From a virus, in the IMG/VR virus record IMGVR_UViG_3300045988_063657, positions 1 through 5,804 of that record: a stretch of DNA of 5,804 nucleotides; one strand, 5' to 3'. This document shows positions 457 to 5,804 of the stretch, piece by piece (position 1 is the first letter of the stretch; every line of letters begins with the position of its first letter). Both the position numbers and the translations under genes were made by a program. The notes beneath the pieces are model-generated. The model saw nothing but the letters and a program-made list of their open reading frames with translations. It made no database searches and had not been told where the DNA came from.

Positions 457-720
457 ATGGAATATCAGGTTTACGCAATCAAAGATGAACTGGCAGGGAC
501 CTTCGGCAATCTCATGGTGGTCAACGAGAAGGTGGCCGAACGGACGATGAAGTGGATGGCCCAGGAGATGGAGAAGGCCGACTGCGAGGATAAGCGGGTC
601 TATCTGCTGGGCAGCTATGACAACGAAACCGGCCTGATCAGGCCAGAGCAGCTGCCGCGCCTGATGTACAATCTCGAGCTGATGAAGAAGGAGCAGACGA
701 ATGGGAGTCAGAATCTTTAA
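457..720 (+). CDS. VP5: Gokushovirus VP5-like nonstructural protein, 87 aa
   Basis: GGAGGA 445..450 lies 6 nt before the ATG. The N-terminal YQVYAIKDELAGTFGNLMVVNEKVAERTM and the later YLLGSYDNETGLI...PRL follow the pattern I recall for ORF5 proteins (V.D.K...F..P......A.R.F ... L..G.FD..TG). The position just upstream of VP3 is typical. Confidence 0.65.
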   Translation: MEYQVYAIKDELAGTFGNLMVVNEKVAERTMKWMAQEMEKADCEDKRVYLLGSYDNETGLIRPEQLPRLMYNLELMKKEQTNGSQNL

Positions 721-1198
721 GCCCTACGAGGACGAAAAACCGGCTGCACTGCCGAACGACCCGGGAAACCGGTTTGAGCCGGAGTACAAAGAGCGCTATG
801 ATGACCGCGGACAGCCGTACCTTGAAAAGGTCGGCGAGGTGGACACATACGAAAAAATCCAGAGCTACAAGGACGAATGCGACGTCATGGCTATCCTGAG
901 CCGGTATGCTGCCGGAGACGAAAATGTCTTGGCAAAGCCGGGCTGGTACATCGACACCAGCCGTCTGCCGCAGACCTACACGGAGTATATGAACCTCATG
1001 AACGAAAAGCGGGAAGAGTTTAATCAGCTGCCGCTCTCCATCCGTCAGGCATTCGGCATGAACTTCGAAAACTGGATGGCAACGGCCGGTGAACAGGAGT
1101 GGCTGGAGAAAATGGGCATCAAAATTCAGCAGAATGCACAGGAAAAGGAAGCTGCAGCAACCGAAACCATTGTGCAGAAAGGAGAAAATAAAGAATGA
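701..1198 (+). CDS. VP3: Internal scaffolding protein VP3, 165 aa
   Basis: AAGGAG 688..693 lies 7 nt before the ATG. It overlaps the VP5-like ORF by 20 nt, and its TGA overlaps the VP1 ATG (ATGA at 1195..1198). Motifs QSYKDECDVMAILSRY and FNQLPLSIRQAFGMNFENW match the conserved core of gokushovirus scaffold proteins. The C-terminus is acidic. Confidence 0.8.
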   Translation: MGVRIFKPYEDEKPAALPNDPGNRFEPEYKERYDDRGQPYLEKVGEVDTYEKIQSYKDECDVMAILSRYAAGDENVLAKPGWYIDTSRLPQTYTEYMNLMNEKREEFNQLPLSIRQAFGMNFENWMATAGEQEWLEKMGIKIQQNAQEKEAAATETIVQKGENKE

Positions 1199-2856
1199 AC
1201 CGCAATGCTGAACAGCACTATTCGCAGGTGCCTCATGCAAACGTGCCGCGCGCACGCTTCAAGCGGGACTATTCCTTGCTTACCACGATGAACGAAGGCG
1301 ACCTGGTCCCGATCTACTGCGATGAGGTATTGCCGGCCGACACGGCAAAAATCGATCTCAATGCTCTGATGCGCATGAGCACCCCGCTGTTTCCTGTTAT
1401 GGATAACTGCTACTGTGACTTTTACTTCTTCTTCGTACCGTCGCGCTTGCTGTGGGAGCACTTCGAAAACCTGATGGGGCAAAACGACTCTACTTTCTGG
1501 GCAGAGCCTGTGGAGTACACAACTCCTAAAACGACTGCACCGTCTGGCGGCTGGAACGTAGGAACGCTGGCAGATTACTTCGGGATCCCGACCGGGATAG
1601 CAAACCTTCAGGTGAACTCGCTGCCGTTCCGGGCATATGCCAAGATCTGGAACGAATGGTTCCGAGACGAAAACCTGCAGCAGCCTGTCACGATGAGCAA
1701 GACGGACGCAACCACGACCGGCAGCAACACCGGAACAAACCTCACAGACGCAGAAGCAGGCGGTCTGCCGCTGAAAGTCTGCAAGTACAAGGATTACTTC
1801 ACAAGCTGCCTGCCGAATCCGCAAAAAGGAAACGCGGTAACACTGCCGATGACTGGTAACGCACCGATAGAAGCATATCTCGATACAGACATGACAAAAG
1901 AAGCAGGCTGGTTAAAACAAAAATCGAACGGACACGTAAGCTACCCATGGGCATGGGACGAAAGCGAAAAAGCAACGCTAATGCAAAACGGCTCGATGGA
2001 AGGAGTCATCTTAAACGATGACTATTTATTTAGCGACCAATACGGCAACGAAACAAGTGATAAGGCATACATCGGCGCAAACCTGAGCAAAATACAAGCA
2101 ACAACCATCAACGAACTCCGTCAGGCCATCGCAGTGCAACACATCCTGGAACGCGATGCACGAACCGGCACCCGGTACAAAGAGTACCTGCAGGGAGCTT
2201 GGGGCGTGACCAGCCCGGATGCACGTCTTGACCGGTCGGAGTACATCGGCGGCTACAGACTGCCGATCAACATCAATCAGGTTATCCAGACGTCGGCAAC
2301 CGACACGACCAGTCCGCAGGGCAACACAGCAGCGTTCTCCATGACCACAATGAGCCGAAACATGGCTACCTACTCAGCAACGGAGCACGGCTTTATCATC
2401 GGTCTGGCAGCGGTCAGAGTTGATCACAGCTATCAGCAGGGACTGCCTCGTATGTGGACGCGCAGCACACGCTTTAGCTACTATGATCCGATGCTGGCAA
2501 ACCTGGGCGAACAGGCGGTTCTTAATCAGGAGATCTATGCACAGGGCAACGCACAGGACGAAGAAGTCTTTGGCTATCAGGAAGCCTGGGCCGATTACAG
2601 ATACCACATCAACATGATCACCGGAGAAATGCGCAGCACCTACTCTAAAACTCTGGACGCATGGCACTACGCAGACAAATACGATAAATTGCCCAAACTG
2701 TCCAGCGACTGGATCAAAGAAGGTACGGAAAACATTGACCGGACGATCGCAGTGCAAAGCGAAAAAAGCCGCCAGTTTATCTGCAACTTCTATTTTGACC
2801 AAACCTGGACGCGAGCGATGCCGATCTACAGCCTGCCGGGCCTTGATACGATCTAA
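1195..2856 (+). CDS. VP1: Major capsid protein VP1 (phiX174 F-like), 553 aa
   Basis: The largest ORF. N-terminal HYSQVP...PRARFKRDYSLLTTMNEGDLVPIYCDEVLPADT, DYFTSCLPNPQKG and TINELRQAIAVQHILERDARTGTRY are hallmark Microviridae capsid motifs. AAAGGAGAAA at 1178..1187 lies upstream. Confidence 0.95.
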   Translation: MNRNAEQHYSQVPHANVPRARFKRDYSLLTTMNEGDLVPIYCDEVLPADTAKIDLNALMRMSTPLFPVMDNCYCDFYFFFVPSRLLWEHFENLMGQNDSTFWAEPVEYTTPKTTAPSGGWNVGTLADYFGIPTGIANLQVNSLPFRAYAKIWNEWFRDENLQQPVTMSKTDATTTGSNTGTNLTDAEAGGLPLKVCKYKDYFTSCLPNPQKGNAVTLPMTGNAPIEAYLDTDMTKEAGWLKQKSNGHVSYPWAWDESEKATLMQNGSMEGVILNDDYLFSDQYGNETSDKAYIGANLSKIQATTINELRQAIAVQHILERDARTGTRYKEYLQGAWGVTSPDARLDRSEYIGGYRLPININQVIQTSATDTTSPQGNTAAFSMTTMSRNMATYSATEHGFIIGLAAVRVDHSYQQGLPRMWTRSTRFSYYDPMLANLGEQAVLNQEIYAQGNAQDEEVFGYQEAWADYRYHINMITGEMRSTYSKTLDAWHYADKYDKLPKLSSDWIKEGTENIDRTIAVQSEKSRQFICNFYFDQTWTRAMPIYSLPGLDTI

Positions 2857-2868
2857 GGGGGTGCAGAT

Positions 2869-3795
2869 ATGGCACTCGCATTAGGGGCAGCGATAAAAGC
2901 CGGACTGGGCATAGCAAGCACACTGGCAAGCATCTACAGCACTATCAGAGGGAGCACATCGAGCGCACGACAGCAAGGCACGATGCAAAACACTATACAA
3001 AGCGGTACGACCATGGGAAGCACCGCGCAGGACACCACAAGCACGGGAGTAAGCACTCAGACAGGCAACACCGGAGCACTGGGCAATCTACTGTCAACGG
3101 CGCTTGGAACGCCGACCGGCAATAACGCCGGAGACGCCGCACAGTTTAACGCCGGACAAGCACAAACGGCCAACAACCTTCAGGGAGCACAATGGAATCT
3201 GGGCAATCTCATCAATATGGGCAGTATGCTGGCATCCAACGCGATGAGTGCAGCAAGCCAAAGCAGCGCAATGCGATACAACTCCAAAGAGGCCAAAGCT
3301 CAAAGAGACTGGCAAGAACGCATGAGCAGCACCAGCTACCAGAGAGGGGTCAAAGACCTCGAAGCAGCGGGGCTTAACCCGGTACTGGCAGCATACAACG
3401 GCTTCGGAGCACAAACGCCGTCAGGCGGCTACGGGAGCCTTGGCGGGGGGCAGACCTTCGGTCATACTCAGGCTATGGCAATACCGGCCGCAAAGAATGC
3501 GAACATGCAAGCCATGTACGATTATGGAAACAACACAGCCCAGATCGTGGAGAACTTCCAAGCAGCAATCAACAGCGCAAAACAAACGTCAGACTATCGA
3601 ACGGTTGAACACCTGGAACAGATGCAGCAGCAGACCGTAAGCAGCAGCGCAAAGACCGTGGGCCAGCTGGCAGAGGCCGGCAGAAGCAGCAGCGCTCAGA
3701 CCTCGACCACCAAAGAAAACACCGACAGCAAACAGGTCAACGTAGGCGGTGAAGTGTCCGGCGAGTGGACAAACAAAAAAGACCGCAGAAGATAG
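2869..3795 (+). CDS. VP2: DNA pilot / minor capsid protein VP2 (phiX174 H-like), 308 aa
   Basis: It lies immediately after VP1. AGGGGGTG 2856..2863 is 5 nt before the ATG. The protein is low-complexity (Gly/Ala/Ser/Thr/Gln/Asn-rich) with a central SYQRGVKDLEAAGLNPVLAAY motif typical of gokushovirus VP2. Confidence 0.85.
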   Translation: MALALGAAIKAGLGIASTLASIYSTIRGSTSSARQQGTMQNTIQSGTTMGSTAQDTTSTGVSTQTGNTGALGNLLSTALGTPTGNNAGDAAQFNAGQAQTANNLQGAQWNLGNLINMGSMLASNAMSAASQSSAMRYNSKEAKAQRDWQERMSSTSYQRGVKDLEAAGLNPVLAAYNGFGAQTPSGGYGSLGGGQTFGHTQAMAIPAAKNANMQAMYDYGNNTAQIVENFQAAINSAKQTSDYRTVEHLEQMQQQTVSSSAKTVGQLAEAGRSSSAQTSTTKENTDSKQVNVGGEVSGEWTNKKDRRR

Positions 3796-3824
3796 TTGAC
3801 AAACACAGAAAAGAGGTGTATATT
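3796..3824 (+). promoter_or_regulatory. Sigma70-type promoter for the RHH-VP4 unit: TTGACA (3796..3801), 17 nt, TATATT (3819..3824)
   Basis: Perfect -35, exact 17-nt spacer, 5/6 -10. It starts 1 nt after the VP2 stop and lies about 40 nt upstream of the RHH ATG. It is paralogous to the promoter at 5425. Confidence 0.75.
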
Positions 3825-3847
3825 ATGAGTGTACCAATCACACACTT
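3813..3847. promoter_or_regulatory. Operator-like repeats over the -10 and transcription start: two direct RGTGTA copies 13 bp apart plus one inverted copy
   Basis: GGTGTA at 3815..3820 and AGTGTA at 3828..3833 (GTGTA starts at 3816 and 3829). AGTGT 3828..3832 and ACACT 3842..3846 form an imperfect palindrome, TGAGTGT/ACACTTA. The same motif and spacing recur at the 5425 promoter. Confidence 0.55.
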
Positions 3848-3864
3848 AAGTTAGGAGTAAAACT

Positions 3865-4068
3865 ATGAAGAGCCAGATTGCAAAGAGAATCAACATCAAT
3901 TTGACCGACAGAGAGCAAATAGCACTGGAAAACCTCGAACAAGAAATGGCAAACAGAGGGTGGAAAATGACCACCAGCGACATTATCAGAGAAGCAATAG
4001 TAAACTACTGCGAAAAGGAAACGGGATACACATTCGCCAATGAGTGGAAGCTCAGAGAAACGAAGTGA
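3865..4068 (+). CDS. Ribbon-helix-helix (CopG/Arc/MetJ-type) DNA-binding protein, 67 aa
   Basis: AGGAG 3853..3857 lies 7 nt before the ATG. KRININL has the alternating pattern of a beta-strand. It is followed by helix TDREQIALENLEQEMANRG, a turn, then helix TSDIIREAIVNYCEK. This closely parallels my recollection of pMV158 CopG (KKRLTITLSESVLENLEKMAREMGLSKSAMISVALENYKK). Confidence 0.7.
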   Translation: MKSQIAKRININLTDREQIALENLEQEMANRGWKMTTSDIIREAIVNYCEKETGYTFANEWKLRETK

Positions 4069-4089
4069 CCGGGGAGACCCGGCCACTTC
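4062..4089 (+). other. Hairpin overlapping the RHH stop codon, with a GAGA tetraloop
   Basis: GAAGTG 4062..4067 pairs with CACTTC 4084..4089. CCGGG 4069..4073 pairs with CCCGG 4078..4082. There is one A/C mismatch (4068/4083), and the loop is GAGA 4074..4077. A T7 run sits at 4109..4115, 20 nt downstream rather than adjacent. Confidence 0.55.
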
Positions 4090-4136
4090 TGCAACATTTA
4101 TCCATAGGTTTTTTTGAGCAAGAGCTAAATTTTGTG

Positions 4137-4181
4137 TCAATGGGCCCCTATAACATCAAGAGGGTTATAGGGGCCCATTGA
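4137..4181. repeat. Perfect 18-bp inverted repeat (hairpin) with a 9-nt loop, between the RHH and Rep genes
   Basis: TCAATGGGCCCCTATAAC 4137..4154 is the exact reverse complement of GTTATAGGGGCCCATTGA 4164..4181. The loop is ATCAAGAGG 4155..4163. No T-tract follows. Confidence 0.9.
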
Positions 4182-4202
4182 GGAAAGGCGCAGCGAAACT
4201 AT

Positions 4203-5312
4203 ATGTCATGTACGAGACCGCTCATCAGAATACCGACAAGCGACGGAGATTTCCGCGTAGTAAGCCTGAAAGGATACTTAAACCACAGCGGAAAGAACCT
4301 GGAATTTATCGCGGATAAAGAGCGTCAAGATCTGAACGAGAAAAAAATCAAAGAGCTGATAAAAACTCAAGAAGCGCAGCTGCTACCGTGCGGACAATGT
4401 CCAGGATGCAAAATGGCAGCTGCGTCCAGCTGGGCAAACAGAATGGAGCTAGAGCTGCCATACCATCAAAACGCATGGTTCATCACGTTTACATACGATG
4501 ACGATAATGTGCCATACCGGATGACATGGGACGAAGGGACCGGCGAAGTACTAGTAGAAAATTACAGTCTACGATATGAGGATATGCAAAAGTTCTGGAA
4601 ACGCCTGAGAAGGTACATGGATTATCACAAGATAAACAACGGAAAACTGATGTACTTCCAATGTGGTGAATATGGCGGAAAAACACACAGACCACATTAT
4701 CATGCAATAGTTTACGATATACCGTTCAAAAAAGACGAGTTGAAGATCTACAAAAAGAAAAACGGCGCTGTATATTACAACGTCGATTGGATAACGGACC
4801 TGTGGGGAATGGGTCATGTGGTCATCGCAGCAGCAGAGTGGAAAGCGATGGCATACACAGCAAGATACACCACAAAGAAGGTTTATGGAAAGGAAGGAAA
4901 AGAATTTTACAAAGAGCTGGGAATCTTACCTGAAAAGTGTAACATGAGCAAAAGACCAGCGATCGGAGCAAAATACTTTGAAGAACATAGCGCAGAAATC
5001 TATGAAAAAGACAAAATCCAGCTGAAGAACGGAAAAGTTTGTAAACCGCCGAGATATTTTGATAAGCTATACGATGCACAGTGTCTAAAAAAACCACTCT
5101 CAGACAAAGAGGTAGAAGACATTGAGCTAGTAATAGAAAAAGCCGAGTCCGATGAGCTCAAAGCGATAAAGAGAAAACGTCGTAAGTTAGCAAATGACGC
5201 ACTCTTCGCCAGGCTCAAGCAGAACAACGGCTTAACCATGCAAGAGTATTATAGCAAAGAGGAACAGAAAATACAAGACAGGTTCAGAAAGCTAATCCGG
5301 GAAGAAATCTAA
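4203..5312 (+). CDS. VP4: Rolling-circle replication initiator VP4 (HUH endonuclease, phiX174 A-like), 369 aa
   Basis: Motif 1 is FITFTYDD (from 4479). The HUH motif is RPHYHAIVY (CAT TAT CAT at 4695..4703). The double-tyrosine motif is YTARYTTKK (Y218 at 4854, Y222 at 4866). CGQCPGCK followed by SWANR is typical of microvirus Rep. The SD is weak or distant (GGAAAGG ends 14 nt before the ATG). Confidence 0.92.
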   Translation: MSCTRPLIRIPTSDGDFRVVSLKGYLNHSGKNLEFIADKERQDLNEKKIKELIKTQEAQLLPCGQCPGCKMAAASSWANRMELELPYHQNAWFITFTYDDDNVPYRMTWDEGTGEVLVENYSLRYEDMQKFWKRLRRYMDYHKINNGKLMYFQCGEYGGKTHRPHYHAIVYDIPFKKDELKIYKKKNGAVYYNVDWITDLWGMGHVVIAAAEWKAMAYTARYTTKKVYGKEGKEFYKELGILPEKCNMSKRPAIGAKYFEEHSAEIYEKDKIQLKNGKVCKPPRYFDKLYDAQCLKKPLSDKEVEDIELVIEKAESDELKAIKRKRRKLANDALFARLKQNNGLTMQEYYSKEEQKIQDRFRKLIREEI

Positions 5313-5335
5313 AGAACGGCTGAATAAGGGAATGC

Positions 5336-5424: not shown

Positions 5425-5453
5425 TTGACAAATGTACAATTTAGGTGTATAAT
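5425..5453 (+). promoter_or_regulatory. Consensus sigma70 promoter: TTGACA (5425..5430), 17 nt, TATAAT (5448..5453)
   Basis: Both hexamers are perfect and the spacing is optimal, in an intergenic region. It shares TTGACAAA and AGGTGTATA.TA with the 3796 promoter. Confidence 0.8.
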
Positions 5454-5480
5454 AAAGGTGTAGAAAGGAAGTGTACAAAG
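5429..5480 (+). repeat. Four tandem 13-bp iteron-like units, consensus nARRTGTAnAAWn
   Basis: The units are caaATGTAcaatt (5429..5441), tagGTGTAtaata (5442..5454), aagGTGTAgaaag (5455..5467) and gaaGTGTAcaaag (5468..5480). Seven of 13 positions are invariant, and the TGTA cores are exactly 13 bp apart. The array spans from inside the spacer through the -10 to the ATG of the next ORF. Confidence 0.65.
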
Positions 5481-5481
5481 C

Positions 5482-5649
5482 ATGGAAAACCTATACAAAG
5501 ACCTCGACACCGAAACGCTCAACTGGATGGACTACAGATATGAACATTGCGACGGCGCTTGTGAAAAATGTCCGTGCCACGATGTAAGCTATTATTGCAG
5601 CTACATCCACGACCAAGTCAGAAAAGAGCTTAACCGGCGAGGGGAATAA
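5482..5649 (+). CDS. Hypothetical 55-aa Cys/His-rich protein, putatively metal-binding
   Basis: MENLYKDLDTETLNWMDYRYEHCDGACEKCPCHDVSYYCSYIHDQVRKELNRRGE carries the cluster H-C-x3-C-x2-C-x-C-H-x5-C-x3-H. It lies between a consensus promoter and an intrinsic terminator. AAAGGAAG 5464..5471 is 10 nt before the ATG. It is below the size cutoff of the ORF track. Confidence 0.55.
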   Translation: MENLYKDLDTETLNWMDYRYEHCDGACEKCPCHDVSYYCSYIHDQVRKELNRRGE

Positions 5650-5652
5650 ACC

Positions 5653-5699
5653 AAAAAACGTGAGGTTGACGAAAAACAGCCTTGCGTTTTTTTTTTTTT
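5653..5699 (+). terminator. Intrinsic terminator: A6, hairpin, T13
   Basis: The stem pairs 5659..5668 with 5677..5686 (10 bp, including 3 G:U wobbles) around an 8-nt loop. A6 (5653..5658) lies upstream and an uninterrupted T13 (5687..5699) directly downstream. It starts 4 nt after the stop of the Cys-rich ORF. Confidence 0.6.
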
Positions 5700-5804
5700 G
5701 GTAAAATTGACATAGAGAGCCGGCGCCAGAAAACGAAAGGAGAAAGCACTGCCTCCGGCGCCGGTGATCTGTGCTTCAATTCTATTTTTACAAATCTGAA
5801 AAGA
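5686..5804. repeat. Terminal direct repeat, copy 2 (circular-assembly overlap)
   Basis: Identical to 1..119. Confidence 0.95.

Follow-up and report, generated by a model that had tools for sequence, protein, structure and literature searches.

The DNA considered here is a stretch of 5,804 nucleotides from a virus (IMG/VR record IMGVR_UViG_3300045988_063657; hereafter the window), which holds a circular genome of 5685 nt with 119 nt of terminal redundancy in its 5804 bases. Judged by its genes, this genome is a gokushovirus-type member of the Microviridae, and all coding lies on the plus strand. We are concerned with two promoters, P1 and P2, which both carry copies of a short box (consensus R-GTGT-R) in a 13-bp register, and with the gene directly behind P1, which encodes a small protein resembling the ribbon-helix-helix (RHH) regulators. 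The relevant features are the following.

3796-3801, plus strand: -35 hexamer of P1, TTGACA (mean information 1.90 bits in 45 unique relatives)
3802-3807, plus strand: position of P1 box A, AACACA; the inverted GTGT core, ACAC, is at 3803-3806, 13 bp from box B
3815-3820, plus strand: P1 box B, GGTGTA, sharing two bases with the start of the -10 hexamer
3819-3824, plus strand: -10 hexamer of P1, TATATT, after a spacer of 17 nt (TATAWT in nearly all relatives)
3828-3833, plus strand: P1 box C, AGTGTA, spanning the predicted start at about 3831
3836-3839, plus strand: nearly invariant AATC between P1 boxes C and D
3841-3846, plus strand: P1 box D, CACACT, an inverted copy of AGTGTG with its centre 13 bp from that of box C
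3865-4068, plus strand: gene of the 67-aa CopG-like RHH protein, the candidate repressor (Shine-Dalgarno sequence AGGAG at 3853-3857)
4203-5312, plus strand: VP4, rolling-circle replication initiator (Rep, HUH-type; Pfam PF23343, E=3.5e-15)
5425-5430, plus strand: -35 hexamer of P2, TTGACA
5431-5436, plus strand: P2 box A, AATGTA, degenerate here and AGTGTA in relatives
5444-5449, plus strand: P2 box B, GGTGTA, overlapping the -10 hexamer
5448-5453, plus strand: -10 hexamer of P2, TATAAT (12/12 promoter match)
5457-5462, plus strand: P2 box C, GGTGTA, over the predicted start at about 5460
5470-5475, plus strand: fourth P2 copy, AGTGTA, in 13-bp phase, present in this genome only

Judged by their sequences, P1 and P2 are consensus sigma-70 promoters. 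In a promoter scan, P1 (TTGACA-17-TATATT, 3796-3824) matches the consensus at 11 of 12 positions and P2 (TTGACA-17-TATAAT, 5425-5453) at all 12, and the two rank far above every other site of the window. The initial annotation had aligned them as TTGACAAA-11-GGTGTATA(T/A)TA-3-GTGTA, and this alignment matches exactly; that the promoters are paralogous, as it also stated, is conjectural, since they have nothing more in common than the hexamers and the boxes. The predicted starts were placed 7 nt after the -10 hexamer and fall within box C in both promoters. The P1 cores form the series ACAC/GTGT/GTGT/ACAC, centred at 3804.5, 3817.5, 3830.5 and 3843.5 in steps of 13 bp, with boxes B, C and D falling at -16, -3 and +11, or 32 to 50 nt ahead of the start codon of the RHH gene. 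Repeated short boxes overlap the core promoter of the candidate regulator's own gene, the arrangement of an autoregulated RHH module. At P2, the first and the fourth box are each extended to the palindrome TGTACA (5433-5438 and 5472-5477, 39 nt or 3 x 13 apart), and the two palindromes pair in a single-strand fold; this is seen in this genome only and is not conserved.

The phasing of the boxes was examined by counting. GTGTA occurs six times on the plus strand, with starts at 3816, 3829, 4937, 5445, 5458 and 5471, and five of these six copies lie within P1 and P2, in agreement with an earlier estimate by eye. Exact 13-bp steps of RGTGTA, as first described, hold for the copies at 3816, 3829, 5445, 5458 and 5471 but not for the one at 5432, which reads ATGTA; the inverted third copy claimed for P1 is present as ACACT at 3842-3846. 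Three GTGTA pairs are phased at period 13, a count that no 5-mer exceeds at any of the periods 7-21 in the real genome. None of 500 dinucleotide shuffles gave three GTGTA pairs at this period, and three pairs of any 5-mer at any of these periods were reached in 3 of 500 dinucleotide-preserving shuffles. Because the shuffles almost never match it, the phasing is real and not a product of chance.

Conservation was followed in 60 distinct microvirus genomes with a relative of the RHH protein, collected by searches with the protein, with its alignment and with a DNA pattern; unique promoter sequences were scored for the boxes (45 for P1, 32 for P2, the P2 consensus being drawn from 27). The boxes are present in all 60 genomes. 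P1 stands directly upstream of the RHH gene in every one of them, in one case (L014) with the -10 hexamer shifted by 1 nt. Together these genomes contain 324 plus-strand GTGTA copies, which form 117 pairs in 13-nt phase at P1 or P2, and the only phased pair outside the conserved positions is the window's own, at 5458/5471. The P1 consensus is TTGAcaaa.a.agAAAagaGGTGTATA.TATG.GTGTAc.AATCacACACtT and that of P2 is CTTGACAAGTGTAT..tttAgGTGTATAATAAAGgTGTAgaaAgga.

The boxes differ in how strictly they are kept. At P1, box B never departs from GGTGTA in the 45 unique sequences, box C is either AGTGTA (23) or GGTGTA (22), and box D follows (C/T)ACAC(T/C) in 43 of 45 (CACACT 23, TACACT 9, CACACC 8, TACACC 3). 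Box A is variable (AACACA 15, AGTGGA 6, GACACA 4, GATGTA 3 and CACACA 3 among the 45; 0.85 bits) and is mostly of the ACAC type or of the GTGT/TGTA type, and boxes are found in both orientations within one 13-bp register. In the AATC between boxes C and D, A24, A25 and C27 of alignment A3 are invariant and T26 is kept in at least 90% of sequences. At P2, boxes A and B read AGTGTA and GGTGTA, respectively, in 27 of the 32 unique sequences each (box A is AATGTA in two more), and box C is GGTGTA in 24, GATGTA in three and GGTGGA in two. Box A of P2 carries 1.73 bits against 1.20 for the adjoining spacer, the bases between A and B vary freely, and the position of the fourth copy holds just 0.26 bits.

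The P1 core is mostly 80-100% identical to that of the window, though the VP1 capsid gene of the same relatives is 73-91% identical in nucleotides and their RHH gene is often unalignable at the nucleotide level. This comparison of sequences supports strong selection on the boxes. GTGTA is a short motif and the relatives come largely from one metagenome (3300045988), so that the boxes might be thought to reflect chance, or shared ancestry without function. We find this scarcely credible in view of the shuffle statistics and of the phased pairs in the 60 genomes, and the boxes were kept even where the flanking open reading frames (ORFs) have been replaced.

The controls were ten gokushoviruses without a match to the RHH profile, the next in order of VP1 similarity (Dulem viruses 206 and 202, MG945689, MN379640, KT264785, MG945870, MT121961, MG945136, KX513864 and MN379630). 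Sigma-70-type promoter-like sites are found in nine of the ten, and none of the ten has a GTGTA pair, or even a TGTA pair, in 13-nt phase. The boxes co-occur perfectly with the RHH gene: they are present in 60 of 60 RHH-bearing and in none of the 10 RHH-less genomes. One of the controls (L274, MG945689.1) has, within 5261-5330 and right after VP2, a perfect TTGACA-16-TATAAT promoter with a different palindrome at the start site, TAGGTGA-gtg-TCACCTA, which may be the operator of another factor.

Since boxes B and C overlap the -10 hexamer and the predicted +1 in both promoters, the shared bases could be intrinsic to the promoters. GGTG next to the -10 hexamer and GTGTA at the start would then reflect preferences of the host RNA polymerase in very strong promoters, and the 13-nt repeat would be a by-product of the distance of about 13 nt from the -16 region to +1. 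Some unrelated promoters of large phages do have GGTG-TATAAT-N3-RGTGTA: a scan of IMG/VR for GGTGTATAWT-N3-RGTGTA returned 84 non-microvirus loci, of which about 20 look like real promoters and 14 have a perfect TTGACA at the right spacing. The genes downstream of these non-microvirus promoters are unrelated and none is RHH-like, and the loci are what chance would give among millions of promoters. When sites were instead sampled from IMG/VR with TTGACA-N13-GGTGTATAAT, RGTGTA followed at N3 in 1 of 113 non-microvirus sites versus 3 of 4 sites from RHH-bearing microviruses, and the base composition downstream of the sampled non-microvirus GGTG-TATAAT promoters has no preference for G-T-G-T-A. 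Generic promoter architecture was dropped as the main explanation, as GGTG-TATAAT is not generally linked to RGTGTA. Promoter preferences would also leave unexplained box A in the P2 spacer, the inverted box D of P1 (+11 to +16) and the ACAC-type box A of P1, and the consensus promoters of the RHH-less relatives do without the box bases. We regard this explanation as unlikely.

The inverted pair at P1 (RGTGT, 9 nt, ACACY) could fold into a hairpin, either in genomic single-stranded DNA or in read-through RNA, rather than serve as a duplex operator. The outer pair of boxes C and D covaries (A-U 15, G-C 12, G-U 12, no mismatch), the paired cells amount to 91.6% as against 24-71% when the partner is slid, and GGTGT...ACACC with the same 9-nt gap recurs in P2 of one lineage (that of L001); a hairpin accounts for the covarying pair slightly better than does a duplex operator. 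The covariation is confined to that one pair, however, and the stem of five pairs with its 9-nt loop (-2.3 kcal/mol, z = -0.55) is no more stable than those of shuffled sequences. mRNA from P1 would lack the left arm, which is placed at the predicted start or upstream of it. Neither the direct repeats from A to C nor the 13-nt phase would be explained, and the nearly invariant AATC is unexpected in the loop of a simple hairpin. A hairpin as the reason for the boxes is in our view very improbable.

Two other candidates within the P1 region were set aside. A leader peptide from the invariant ATG at 3826 (MSVPITHLS) would begin upstream of the predicted start; its first and second codon positions vary and the third is fixed, and its stop and its frame relative to the RHH gene vary as well. 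The sequence TGTATATTATG, which we take to resemble the core of the E. coli dif site, was considered as a dif/XerCD-like site; it has no flanking arms, is absent from P2 and was judged to be there by chance.

The evidence from sequence and from structure prediction that the 67-aa protein is RHH-like, and more closely CopG-like, is suggestive. Seven of 13 family members matched Pfam RHH_1 (PF01402), always below the gathering score (best E=0.0073), and there is a sub-threshold match to DUF6290 (E=0.031); none of the 13 matched a curated RHH profile above threshold. The AlphaFold2 monomer model (pLDDT 73.6) has residues 1-14 extended, followed by helices at 15-30 and 37-53, and its best Foldseek matches are mostly RHH proteins (NikR, ParB of pCXC100, YiiF, ParD2, Arc and PrpA), at E 0.5 or worse. 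With hhalign, the family aligns to CopG of pMV158 end to end over 40 columns and strand to strand (P=3e-4), placing KRININLT over KRLTITLS; similarity to Arc was not significant in a comparison of the same kind, and a sequence search of the PDB with the family profile returned only noise. In the predicted strand (K7 R8 I N10 I N12 L13 T14), residues K7, R8, N10, N12, L13 and T14 are invariant in alignments of 25 and of 13 sequences. The pattern (K/R)R-x-N-x-N-L-T is nearly invariant in 35 distant representatives. The family otherwise evolves fast, its helices diverging to about 40% identity. The strand alternates polar or basic with hydrophobic residues and conserves the polar ones, as is expected of an RHH strand. 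The family is small, with 38 clusters among 1.84 billion representatives and members of 55-125 aa, and the members that were traced sit on contigs of about 5.5 kb.

Nine variants of the RHH protein, from close relatives of the window (L008-L010, L020-L025, L027), end in AISEEEDLPF; relatives with the EEEDLPF ending include KX513873, MG945797 and MG945186, and other endings in the family are DDLPF, NEDLPF, DDNLPF, DKLPF and DELPF. The C-terminal protein-interaction tail of Gram-positive SSB, which binds single-stranded DNA, reads IDISDDDLPF (PMC5531588). The mimicry is close and suggests that some RHH variants might recruit partner proteins of SSB and that the host may be Gram-positive. The protein of the window itself ends in GYTFANEWKLRETK instead.

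Our preferred interpretation, to which we give a probability of about 60%, is that the boxes are putative operator sub-sites of the phage's own RHH protein, which would act as an autoregulated repressor. Boxes of the consensus R-GTGT-R, in either orientation and with centres exactly 13 bp apart, would each be read by an RHH dimer, whose N-terminal beta-ribbon (K7-R8-I-N10-I-N12-L-T14) would insert into the major groove. Several dimers would fill three or four boxes, from -29 to +16 at P1 and from -29 to +3 at P2, the latter extending to +16 with the fourth copy of this genome, and would shut RNA polymerase out of two promoters of otherwise consensus strength. P1 would serve the RHH gene and then, by read-through, VP4, forming a negative autoregulatory loop that limits the supply of Rep in the way CopG acts on RepB in pMV158. 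P2 would be a second promoter under the same repressor and would place an optional, swappable cassette of accessory genes under its control.

The overlap of the boxes with -35, -10 and +1 is that of repressor sites, and the position of P1 directly upstream of the RHH gene fits a classic autoregulatory layout. We read P1 as the promoter of a putative autoregulated RHH-Rep operon because the layout (promoter, boxes, RHH gene, Rep) follows the logic of CopG. RHH proteins read 4-bp core boxes, direct or inverted, with paired beta-strands and bind cooperatively over promoters (PMC3413123), and the general statement of the initial annotation that they bind tandem or inverted short repeats over promoters is borne out by the literature (PMC3413123, PMC2724298). 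Its further proposal that a single regulator controls both transcription units of the phage goes too far, as P2 belongs to an optional cassette and not to the other main unit. The regulator probably controls its own gene, Rep and the optional accessory slot.

Several observations weigh against this interpretation. The assignment to the RHH proteins is sub-threshold throughout (Pfam below cut-off, Foldseek E>0.5, monomer pLDDT 74). The spacing of 13 bp between box centres exceeds that of characterised RHH operators (about 7-9 bp between centres), in which a unit takes 8 bp in ParG or MetJ and the 4-bp boxes of CopG and Arc stand 5 bp apart (PMC2724298, PMC3413123), and it does not fit known contacts between RHH dimers. 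At 13 bp, adjacent dimers would lie about 86 degrees apart around the helix, and therefore the usual dimer-dimer contacts are not obviously possible. Searches of IMG/VR and metagenomes for strand variants carrying F or Y in place of N12 recovered two, both N12-to-F (L155 and L282); they keep identical boxes, and neither is an informative case of co-variation between strand and box. The RHH-bearing genomes appear to form one clade, so that shared ancestry confounds the co-occurrence. The whole P1 block of about 45 nt is conserved, and its signal is partly not box-specific because the non-box TATG and AATC are kept as strongly as the boxes; where boxes B and C overlap the -10 hexamer and the start, their conservation may be partly intrinsic to the promoter.

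The unusual phasing and the unchanged boxes of the N12-to-F variants could also mean that the boxes bind another factor, either a host regulator or Rep (VP4) on iteron-like sites, and that the RHH protein has a different role; the AISEEEDLPF tails of the nine variants hint at one linked to replication. VP4 is present in all microviruses, however, and yet the ten RHH-less ones checked have no boxes, the boxes accompany the RHH gene throughout, and their site directly upstream of that gene fits autoregulation. Iteron-like sites for Rep are not what we find either, as the boxes sit on promoters and lie 300 nt from a conserved hairpin at 4138-4182. No host regulator known to us has such a motif; Spo0A, CcpA (cre), PhoP and LexA were considered. 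Binding by another factor is rather unlikely in our judgement.

An integrated prophage was considered as a rationale for a phage-encoded repressor and rejected, as 185,579 species genomes of bacteria and archaea yielded no relative of the RHH protein. A search with VP1 gave only one distant gokushovirus (L273, VP1 46% identical), which lies at about 3800-9100 of a 14.5-kb bacterial contig (CAZYSS010000055.1, an Oscillospiraceae metagenome-assembled genome). By their N-terminal sequences its flanks look host-like (tgt-, yajC- and radA-like), a neighbouring ORF looks tyrosine recombinase-like, and it appears to be a microvirus integrated in Clostridia. It has neither the RHH gene nor the boxes.

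P2 drives an optional, hypervariable accessory-gene cassette and not the other main transcription unit. P2 with its small ORF is found in 20 of the 33 genomes in which the stretch from VP4 to the terminator was traced; in the other 13 of these 33 P2 was not detected, and the gap is mostly too short for a cassette. The slot behind P2 holds at least six unrelated ORF families across the relatives and is empty in some, as in L025, where P2 runs straight into the terminator with no ORF between. The occupant in the window, a Cys-rich ORF, has no family match. In one relative (L049), an accessory ORF (MKYTKVTD...) stands between P1 and the RHH gene, and its N-terminus resembles that of an ORF behind P2 in L016 and L017 (MKYVIDQN...). 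The cassette-closing hairpin and its run of 12-15 T are conserved and, in relatives with a readable site, are followed by GGTAAAAT; in the window the T run with GGTAAAAT occupies positions 1-22, and the same sequence is at 5687-5707. TGGTAAAAT fits an extended -10 element; the structural genes probably have a third promoter of their own, without boxes, and it may lie here. The window and many IMG/VR contigs begin exactly at the T run, probably through assemblies breaking at the homopolymer. The remaining features of the genome are these.

457-720, plus strand: VP5
701-1198, plus strand: VP3, scaffold
1195-2856, plus strand: VP1, capsid (Pfam Phage_F, E=8e-163)
2869-3795, plus strand: VP2
5482-5649, plus strand: Cys-rich accessory ORF of 55 aa behind P2 (motif CDGACEKCPCH)
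5653-5699, plus strand: terminator-like hairpin with a T13 run, closing the P2 unit (conserved in relatives)

Among public genomes, Human gut gokushovirus SH-CHD10 (KX513873, 86% identity) and three microviruses from pig faeces are nearest. The relatives keep the order P1-RHH-VP4. The promoter scan found no promoter-like site on the plus strand between 3825 and 4746, and so none between the RHH gene and VP4. The gap between these two genes measures 134 nt and holds two hairpins. The first, GAAGTGACCGGGGAGACCCGGCCACTTC at 4062-4089, is GC-rich and overlaps the RHH stop codon; it scored as a terminator on the minus strand only, a similar hairpin is found there in close relatives, and it may modulate read-through into VP4. 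The second is a long perfect hairpin, TCAATGGGCCCCTATAAC-atcaagag-GGTTATAGGGGCCCATTGA, at 4138-4182, just upstream of the VP4 ribosome-binding site and accompanied by the conserved TTGTGTCA (4132-4139) and CAACATTTATCCAT (4094-4107). It is conserved across the clade with several compensatory changes in the arms (GGGCCCCTATAAC / GGGCCCCAATAAC / GGGGGGAATAGAC, the 3' arm matching in each case), and its loop, ATCAAGAR, is conserved too. Nothing in Rfam matched above threshold, this hairpin giving sub-threshold matches only; it could serve as a single-strand origin, be recognised by Rep or attenuate VP4.

The closest parallel to the P1 module is the copG-repB operon of plasmid pMV158. There, too, the gene of a small RHH protein comes first and that of a rolling-circle initiator second (RHH proteins of 45-67 aa), and the box array overlaps the -35 and -10 of the promoter ahead of the RHH gene. 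CopG is co-transcribed with repB from one promoter, its four dimers span about 50 bp, with -35 and -10 among them, and its presence on the operator blocks RNA polymerase (PMC2724298). CopG binds a pseudo-symmetric operator element of 13 bp, in which 5 bp separate two TGCA boxes (PMC2724298); the R-GTGT-R boxes described here, in contrast, are mostly direct and have their centres 13 bp apart. The present replicon is, moreover, a virus and not a plasmid, and has a second promoter with the same boxes that drives an accessory cassette. For an antisense partner like RNA II of pMV158, a search near 4100-4250 gave no minus-strand promoter-like site and Rfam no noteworthy match, which is a weak test.

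Among phages, Arc and Mnt of the immI region of P22 are comparable as phage-encoded RHH repressors, which bind short inverted boxes over strong promoters. Arc is autoregulated, and its DNA-reading strand uses Asn and Arg side chains. P22 is a large double-stranded DNA temperate phage, and both the geometry and the sequence of its boxes differ from those in the window, the Arc operator measuring 21 bp with TAGA boxes 5 bp apart (PMC2724298). Regular arrays of short core boxes, direct or inverted, are also known for ParG of TP228 and omega of pSM19035, which both serve in partition as well. Those of omega are contiguous 7-bp repeats. In omega, as in ParG, contacts between dimers set the spacing. 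The ParG repeats are contiguous too and measure 8 bp, as opposed to 13 bp here (PMC3413123).

With the phiX174-type Microviridae, the genome shares the VP1/F capsid, a VP4/A-like Rep, host sigma-70-type promoters and leaky terminators. In phiX174, to our knowledge, expression is governed by promoters that are constitutive, by terminators and by the stability of the mRNA, and the phage encodes no transcription factor. In full-text searches, no paper was found that ties Microviridae or gokushoviruses to an RHH protein, to CopG or to a repressor. The type of mechanism is well known; what is new is that it occurs in this family, together with the spacing of 13 bp and an accessory slot under regulation.

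A wider scenario, which we hold to be quite doubtful, is that a clade of gut gokushoviruses acquired plasmid-style copy control. A CopG-like RHH protein would polymerise on the 13-bp boxes, in an unusual geometry that does not follow the helical repeat, and throttle its own promoter, Rep and the accessory slot. As the protein of sister lineages has the SSB-mimicking tail, the box arrays might also tether host partners of SSB (such as PriA, repair or replication factors) to the replicative form. Control of transcription would then be linked to replication, or to a quiescent carrier state, in a family of viruses believed to lack regulators.

The Microviridae are the textbook case of "unregulated" phages, in which fixed promoters and terminators determine gene dosage. 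If autoregulation by the RHH protein holds true, it would give this phage family its first described switch dedicated to transcription, and certain phages among the most abundant single-stranded DNA phages of the gut could throttle Rep and switch accessory genes. The geometry of the operator, at 13 bp, would then fall outside the range known for RHH proteins. The natural regulated insertion slot could serve the engineering of microviruses, and a phage-encoded repressor would bear on the question of persistence in cells versus simple lysis.

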